Notes under the pieces: model-generated
What the model saw: only the letters and a program-made list of their open reading frames with translations
Database searches by the model: none
Told to the model about the DNA's origin: nothing
Shown: positions 44,603 to 45,975 of the stretch, piece after piece
Position numbering within the stretch: the first letter of the stretch is position 1
How the letters are laid out: the number at the start of each line of letters is the position of its first letter
Program-made: the position numbers and the translations under genes
Assembly (NCBI RefSeq): GCF_045037415.1
Contig: NZ_CP173438.1
Reading direction: 5' to 3' (one strand)
DNA length: 64,000 nucleotides
Source: Escherichia coli
Lineage (GTDB): Bacteria > Pseudomonadota > Gammaproteobacteria > Enterobacterales > Enterobacteriaceae

Positions 44603-44921
44603 AGTAGTCTCCTGAGGTTTTATTAGAATCATTATGTTTGAGCGTAGCGTTGGTAACGCTACCAGGCGCGTGAATGTTACCCCATTTTATGTATGGACAT
44701 GTAGTGAAAACTACAACTTTGTCGTTCGCTTTGGCATCATCTTTATTATAAAGACGGAATTTTGCATCAGCTTCTCATCAGGAAAAACAACTAAAAAATC
44801 AATCACAATACTTGTGCATTTCTTTAAACAGTTTTTAAAAACTGACTCCGGGTATGGAGCTATGGGTATTTTCTGTCCCCAATGCTTTTAACAGCAATTA
44901 ATTTCATAGGATGAAAGCTTA

Positions 44922-45874
44922 ATGCACCAATCTGGTTCTGTTTCTCTTTGTCGTTCCGCAATATCTGTTCTGGTGGCTACAGCGTTATATTCGCCCATAG
45001 CATTGGCATCAACTGTTGAGTATGGTGAGACAGTTGATGGTGTTGTCCTGGAAAAAGATATCCAGCTGGTTTGTAGGGCCGCCAATAATACGAAAATCAA
45101 TCCTGGCGGAGAACAGCATATATAAGAATTTGGTGTAAGTAGTAATACTGAAATTAACGGGGGATATCAGTACATTGAAATAAATGGCACCGCAGAATAC
45201 TCAGTATTAAATGATGGTTATCAAATTGTTCAAATGGGTGGCGCGGTAAACCAGACTACGATCAATAATGGAGTGCTACAGGTTTATGGCGCGGCGACTG
45301 ATCCCACGATTAAAGGAGGGCGCTTAATTGTTGAAAAAGATGGGATTGCCGTCTTTGCCGTTATAGAAAAGGGAGGGCTACTGGAGGTTAAAGCAACAGG
45401 TGATTTCAAAATATTCGTGACGGACACCGGTGCCAGCCCGGCAGCAGGAGATAACCTTACACTGGTAACAACGGGCGCGGTGATGCGGCATTTACGTTGG
45501 GCAATGCCGGAGGCGTTGTTGATATCAGTACGTATGAATATACCTTGCTGGATAATGGCAACCATAGCTGGAGTCTCGCAGAGAATCGCGCACAAATGCC
45601 CCCTTCAACCACGGATGTGCTGAATATGGCGGCAGCACAACCGCTGGTATTTGATGCAGAACTGGACACCGTGCGTGGGCGTCTTGGTAGCGTAAAAGGC
45701 GTTAATTACGATACGGCGATGTGGAGTTCGGCAATTAACAGCCGCAACAACGTGACCACTGATGCAGGCGCTGGCTTTGAGCAAACATTGACGGGGCTAA
45801 CGCTTGGTATCGACAGCCGTTTCTCCCGTGAAGAAAGCAGCACAACTCAGGCGGGTGTGGTCTGGACGTTCTGA
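44922..45874 (+). pseudogene. yejO: degraded autotransporter remnant (yejO-like)
   Basis: Three short ORF pieces (44922..45125, 45234..45623, 45497..45874): signal-peptide-like N-terminus, in-frame stop at 45123, frame change near 45480-45500; about 315 codons in total. Confidence 0.6.
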
Positions 45875-45933
45875 TAACAGAAAATAAACAGGCCGTGATG
45901 TGTCGCGGTCTGTTTATCGAATTAAATGCAGAT

Positions 45934-45964
45934 ATAAAAAAACCAACCGCAATAGGTTGGTTTT
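45934..45964. terminator. tRNA-Pro terminator hairpin (bidirectional-looking)
   Basis: AAAAAAACCAACC-GCAATA-GGTTGGTTTT directly 3' of the tRNA on the minus strand. Confidence 0.6.
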
Positions 45965-45975
45965 CTTGGGATTTT

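Follow-up and report, generated by a model that had tools for sequence, protein, structure and literature searches.

The window considered here, i.e., the whole stretch of 64,000 nucleotides that was analyzed, carries between narP and the tRNA-Pro gene proL an interval of 1373 bp, from the end of narP at 44602 to the start of tRNA-Pro(GGG) at 45976, in keeping with the approximately 1.3 kb given in a preliminary description of this DNA. The interval is delimited and occupied by the following features:

43955–44602, minus strand: narP, a 225-aa ORF whose coordinates are those of the gene annotated narP in E. coli SK1144; left boundary.
44603–44921, no strand: divergent narP–yejO intergenic region, 319 bp, intact, with 6 differences and no gap relative to the intact locus.
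44922–45874, plus strand: yejO pseudogene remnant, 953 bp vs. 2592 bp for the intact gene, from alignment to the gene encoding WP_000554222.1.
45976–46052, minus strand: proL, tRNA-Pro(GGG), found by ARAGORN and matched by the Rfam tRNA model with 54.9 bits; right boundary.

In the gene order of the window, narP is preceded by ccmH and proL is followed by yejM, and the annotation from ccmH to yejM comprises ccmH, narP, a pseudogene, the tRNA-Pro gene and yejM only. Outside this region the window is made up of core E. coli chromosome of an ordinary kind (yfaA, the ato, rcs, ompC, nap, ccm and yej genes, mepS, and lpxT), and the first 50 kb of the window match the chromosome of E. coli SK1144, a strain of phylogroup B2 (PMC12366417), with 99.99% identity. 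A megablast search matched the interval to 5424 of the 5426 complete E. coli genomes, every match being chromosomal, and yejO adjoins proL in all E. coli examined. Searching positions 43800–46300 against Rfam at a permissive threshold recovered the tRNA alone, the two other matches falling far under their gathering scores. A consensus scan of promoters and terminators found no sigma-70-like promoter; that scan also missed both terminator hairpins described below, which were confirmed by folding. Position 44634, which had been given as the start of the remnant, is the ATG of a chance 85-aa ORF in the intergenic region that has no Pfam match, and the start of yejO is found instead at 44922.

Relationship to YejO

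The intact yejO of strain 2018-06-4CC (WP_000554222.1, 863 aa) was used as the reference. In many genomes the flanks that border the remnant enclose 3013 bp, including a 2592-bp gene annotated as “autotransporter YejO.” The window aligns with this intact locus as three collinear blocks of 96.2, 95.4, and 94.0% identity, which between them account for all 1373 bp. The narP/yejO/proL/yejM synteny and the high nucleotide identity of the retained sequence identify the remnant as orthologous to yejO.

Intact YejO consists of an N-terminal passenger of AIDA repeats, a Pertactin domain (residues 431–555) and a PF03797 Autotransporter beta-domain (residues 602–841). Fragments of the remnant match the Pfam models AIDA (1.6e-6) and Pertactin (4.8e-7 to 8.6e-6), and match the Autotransporter beta-domain at profile positions 1–44 of 255 only; the NCBIfam model TIGR01414 (autotransporter barrel domain) is matched at 8.6e-24. 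The signal peptide is that of intact YejO. The preliminary description had recognized an autotransporter remnant made of a signal peptide, passenger and barrel start, a view borne out by these matches, and neither of the outcomes that would have spoken against it was encountered: the fragments do match autotransporters, and no full-length gene in a single frame lies at the locus.

YejO and its remnant resemble the self-associating type Va adhesins of the Ag43/AIDA-I group in that they match the models of the AIDA repeat, of pertactin and of the autotransporter barrel. However, the equivalog cut-offs for Ag43 and AIDA-I stand at 1200 bits and the scores are far lower, at 126 and 68 bits; YejO is therefore a relative of these adhesins and a member of neither named protein. 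An identification of YejO with EhaF, a characterized autotransporter of EHEC, was also considered and rejected, since EhaF is z0390, a different gene.

Anatomy and lesions of the remnant

Four lesions separate the remnant from the intact gene: a premature stop codon (K68*), a 1005-bp deletion, a 1-bp deletion and a 633-bp deletion. Codons 1–157, 493–643, and 855–863 of YejO are kept. From the start codon toward proL, the parts of the remnant and of its 3′ spacer are as follows:

44922–45011, plus strand: signal-peptide coding part, MHQSGSVSLCRSAISVLVATALYSPIALA followed by S after the cleavage point; residues 1–30 identical to the N-terminus of intact YejO.
45123–45125, plus strand: premature stop TAA (K68*), AAA in the intact gene; translation ends after 67 residues.
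45393–45394, plus strand: junction of the 1005-bp in-frame deletion; codons 158–492 gone; microhomology of 1 nt (a single shared G).
45472–45480, plus strand: 1-bp deletion, GGCGGCGGT to GGCGCGGT, at codon ~521; frame shifted.
45845–45848, plus strand: junction of the 633-bp in-frame deletion; codons 644–854 gone; microhomology of 2–4 nt.
45872–45874, plus strand: native yejO stop TGA, following the kept C-terminal residues TQAGVVWTF (last 9 codons).
45884–45917, plus strand: hairpin 3′ of yejO, probable yejO terminator; 15-bp stem, −21.3 kcal/mol, z = −6.4; conserved in intact alleles.
45936–45967, minus strand: hairpin with a U7 run, probable proL terminator; −15.8 kcal/mol, z = −5.4; stem kept.

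The remnant appears to encode an N-terminal Sec signal peptide, recognized by eye rather than with a predictor from its basic n-region, hydrophobic core and cleavage site between ALA and S. In the passenger, 335 of ~570 residues are deleted: the 1005-bp deletion takes out the majority of the AIDA repeats along with the first half of the pertactin domain, and AIDA and Pertactin matches persist in what is left. The 633-bp deletion removes ~83% (about five sixths) of the beta-barrel domain, i.e., 211 residues, leaving PF03797 positions 1–44 of 255 and the last 9 residues. Thus, compared with intact YejO, which has the same position, start, signal peptide, stop and terminators and is 94–96% identical in the retained blocks, the remnant lacks codons 158–492 and 644–854, adds K68* and the 1-bp frameshift, and has no possible barrel. 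Neither the complete 12-stranded C-terminal barrel (PF03797/TIGR01414) nor the single open frame of a functional type Va autotransporter is present.

The in-frame stop that had been reported at 45123 is the TAA replacing AAA at K68. A frame change had been placed at about 45490; it corresponds to a real loss of 1 bp, but its position is 45472–45480, 10–15 bases earlier. The alignment to intact yejO that had been proposed as a check defined the deletion breakpoints, previously unlocated, at 45393/45394 and 45845–45848.

The RefSeq annotation of SK1144, whose DAECLI1_RS08030 locus is 100% identical to the window over the 1373 bp, describes a pseudogene at 44922–45844 as “frameshifted; internal stop; incomplete.” RefSeq ends it at 45844 with a “missing C-terminus,” whereas the 633-bp deletion is actually followed by the 9 final codons and by the native stop. 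The “missing C-terminus” is thus slightly wrong, and the annotation would gain from a small correction: the gene is internally deleted and keeps its true C-terminus.

The 101-bp spacer between yejO and proL is retained in the window. In this spacer, the loop and stem top of the proL terminator read CCAACC GCAATA GGTTGG in B2-type alleles (a label discussed below) and CCAACC GTAAG GGTTGG in the intact and K-12 alleles, a difference in the hairpin loop that explains most of the ~10% divergence of the spacer; the hairpin itself is kept.

Distribution and allele series in E. coli

The decay is not confined to the strain of the window. Deletion junctions were counted with 120-bp queries, sized so that the two sides of a deletion are not joined in genomes without it. 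Among 5426 complete E. coli genomes, 761 matched the query across the junction of the 1005-bp deletion without interruption and 1126 did so for the junction of the 633-bp deletion, such that the barrel deletion is found in about a fifth of sequenced E. coli and both deletions in about a seventh. The allele is inherited and not private to this strain. A second allele (allele B), found in ~353 genomes, has a 1161-bp gap at the place where the allele of the window (allele A) has the 1005-bp gap; one or other of the two is present in 1114 genomes, and roughly 12 genomes have the 633-bp junction without that of either A or B.

A multiple alignment of eleven loci, ten of them deletion alleles, gives the order of the lesions more closely. 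The 633-bp deletion is common to 10/10 of the deletion alleles aligned and K68* is present in 9/10 of those examined, most of which also carry the 1005-bp deletion. Strain 2016C04-116 has K68* and both large deletions without the 1-bp deletion, and an extra 14-bp deletion is found in ATCC 25922, GN06667, and UPEC957C. Allele B is allele A without the 155 bp that separate two copies of GGGCGC (45317–45322 and 45472–45477 in the window), the second of which exists only through the 1-bp deletion. The 1-bp frameshift therefore made the GGGCGC repeat that probably served as substrate for the 155-bp deletion, which in turn restored the frame in allele B. An origin of allele B independent of allele A was considered and is less parsimonious than a 155-bp slippage from A via the 6-nt GGGCGC, although the derivation is not proven.

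The large deletions of the yejO remnants are all multiples of three (1005 and 633 bp, and 1161 bp in allele B). This is probably due to chance: with two or three events the odds of such an outcome are 1/9 to 1/27, so that the preservation of the frame is not compelling.

In the allele B strain STLEFF_47 (2292–3089 of its locus), codon 68 is AAA rather than TAA, which leaves an uninterrupted 265-aa ORF containing the signal peptide, passenger fragments, the barrel start and the native C-terminus. The narP gene and the first ~70 yejO codons of this strain resemble non-B2 alleles, which suggests a recombination mosaic; given this 5′ end, the stop codon was probably removed by recombination.

Between the window and the closely related strain PSUO2, divergence amounts to 1.06 and 2.43% in two blocks of the remnant, vs. 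0.09–0.40% in ccmH, narP, and yejM; the higher divergence of the remnant relative to its flanking genes is as predicted under relaxed constraint. ATCC 25922 and ExPEC XM, two of the strains with deletion alleles, belong, like SK1144, to phylogroup B2. The label “B2-type allele” is well supported, and it rests on few strains of known phylogroup rather than on all 1126 genomes. The gene yejO was reported to be missing from ST131 and present in ST38, ST405, and ST648 (PMC5654935).

Comparison with the IS5-interrupted allele of K-12

The preliminary description gave K-12 a longer yejO pseudogene interrupted by IS5, and in K-12-type genomes this element indeed follows nucleotide 69 of a yejO that is full length in all other respects, an interruption likewise stated in the literature (PMC11005336). 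The K-12 gene (b2190) is the same gene at the same locus and is inactive as well. On the one hand, its lesion consists of IS5 alone (1195 bp and a 4-bp duplication). On the other hand, the window has no IS and owes its lesions to point changes and deletions: the multiple alignment contains no insertion of more than 1 bp in the window relative to the intact locus, hence no IS sequence, and the IS5 target of K-12, TTAT (44986–44989), occurs there as a single unoccupied copy. Neither IS sequence nor the footprint of a target-site duplication is thus found, which agrees with the absence of an IS element noted earlier. The further suggestion that decay had gone beyond that of K-12 by deletion holds insofar as the gene is shorter through deletions; the window is not a later stage of the K-12 allele, however, and its lesions are separate. 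The inactivations of the K-12 (phylogroup A) and B2-type alleles are independent and belong to different lineages.

Interpretation of the remnant

The best explanation of the interval, with a probability of roughly 0.93, is a pseudogene in the form found in the B2 strains identified here: a copy of the gene for YejO, an AIDA-I-type (type Va) autotransporter, that has lost its function and is inherited vertically. Codon 68 would halt translation begun at the native start, and a product read through this stop would still miss 335 passenger and 211 barrel residues. In type Va secretion, a passenger reaches the surface only by way of its own 12-stranded C-terminal barrel. Consequently, no repaired reading of the window sequence could yield an autotransporter; lacking the barrel, a product would be expected to achieve neither outer-membrane insertion nor passenger export. 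No evidence contradicts the pseudogene reading.

Comparison of the alleles shows that the decay proceeded stepwise. Illegitimate recombination or slippage during replication, at microhomologies of only 1 nt for the one and 2–4 nt for the other, probably gave rise to both large deletions, and slippage in a GGC GGC GGT run to the 1-bp frameshift. The 633-bp deletion, shared by all deletion alleles, and the 1005-bp deletion and K68*, present in most, were followed by the 1-bp deletion, after which sublineages gained the 14-bp or the 155-bp deletion. The window, with K68* and the 1005-bp, 633-bp, and 1-bp deletions, stands in the middle of the series. Neither IS elements nor the neighboring tRNA gene were involved.

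Conceivably, the loss of YejO was selected and not neutral, as the adaptive loss or remodeling of a surface adhesin, with a barrel-less secreted in-frame product being tolerated or used for some time until the stop arose. Such a view would account for the independent inactivations of the gene (IS5 in K-12, the stop and deletions of the B2-type alleles, and IS1 and an island in strain C21) and for the frame-preserving deletions; the in-frame large deletions and the kept start and stop could be a hint of a shortened protein that selection once favored or left in place. We consider selected loss very unlikely.

It is very unlikely that the remnant is still active, be it through a short secreted peptide (the signal peptide and 37 residues), an in-frame mini-protein used in the past, or regulatory DNA for narP or proL. 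That both large deletions are in frame, that the native start, stop and terminators are kept, that STLEFF_47 has an uninterrupted 265-aa ORF and that the 319-bp intergenic region and the hairpin of the proL terminator are conserved would all be consistent with some residual activity. Yet the window allele carries K68* and the frameshift, the barrel required for autotransporter function is gone, sublineages go on gaining deletions (14 and 155 bp), and divergence lies several-fold above that of the flanking genes. Furthermore, the ORF of STLEFF_47 sits on a mosaic 5′ end like those of non-B2 alleles, its stop having probably been lost by recombination, and the Rfam scan matches the tRNA alone and the consensus scan contains no sigma-70-like promoter.

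The tRNA gene proL and island integration

In the preliminary description, the locus had been regarded as a typical hotspot of turnover on account of its neighboring tRNA gene. The full form of this idea, in which an island integrated at proL and its imprecise excision or deletion removed most of yejO, finds a basis in the use of proL for integration in ATCC 25922, EC130, C21, and Shigella flexneri 1c, where a gtrIC prophage remnant lies between tRNA-Pro and yejO (PMC4924310). In ATCC 25922, an 11.6-kb phage-satellite-like island sits precisely between proL and the remnant (~20700–32190 of its locus) and encodes an integrase, Icd-like proteins, a primase, an SSB, a major capsid protein, a head decoration protein and a small terminase. 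A phage-type integrase island is found on the yejM side of proL in EC130 (4579–5790 of its locus). In C21 (3163–6162), yejO is replaced by IS1A and then P4-like satellite remnants (a primase pseudogene, DUF4222, an Icd-like gene and an ash pseudogene), with the first 162 bp after narP kept.

Aside from its island, EC130 has a yejO variant of its own (1820–4189), in which an in-frame 222-bp deletion between passenger repeats that overlap by ~60 bp yields a 789-aa protein annotated as intact.

In B2 strains proL is thus actively used for integration, as the island of ATCC 25922 shows; the window is not such a case. There, the annotation between ccmH and yejM includes no integrase, no second copy of the proL 3′ end (att scar) is present within the 64 kb, and no foreign sequence was found, so that neither an island nor the scar of one is recognizable. 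Both deletions are internal to the ORF, and the tRNA-proximal end of yejO, its stop, both hairpins and the spacer remain undamaged, in the same order as in intact alleles. Moreover, the remnant of ATCC 25922 has the window's own deletions despite its island, from which it follows that island integration and yejO decay are independent. Integration at proL thus stands for other strains, and an excision that removed yejO is largely refuted as the origin of the remnant and highly improbable; because both deletions are internal to yejO with short-microhomology junctions, the tRNA gene had no visible part in the decay of the window allele.

An assembly or sequencing artefact, i.e., a collapsed repeat in the passenger domain, which is repetitive and did undergo a true repeat-mediated in-frame 222-bp deletion in EC130, can be set aside as extremely improbable, given identical junctions in 761 and 1126 independently assembled complete genomes and the lack of long repeats at these junctions (microhomology of 1–4 nt).

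Significance

Databases already list the remnant as a pseudogene, and published work has noted that a major B2 clone lacks yejO. A vertically inherited, non-functional yejO pseudogene is a case of ordinary, known gene decay that matters little and opens no new question. Its series of lesions nonetheless constitutes a lineage marker of the stepwise decay of a dispensable adhesin gene, which may serve as a phylogenetic character in B2-type E. coli.
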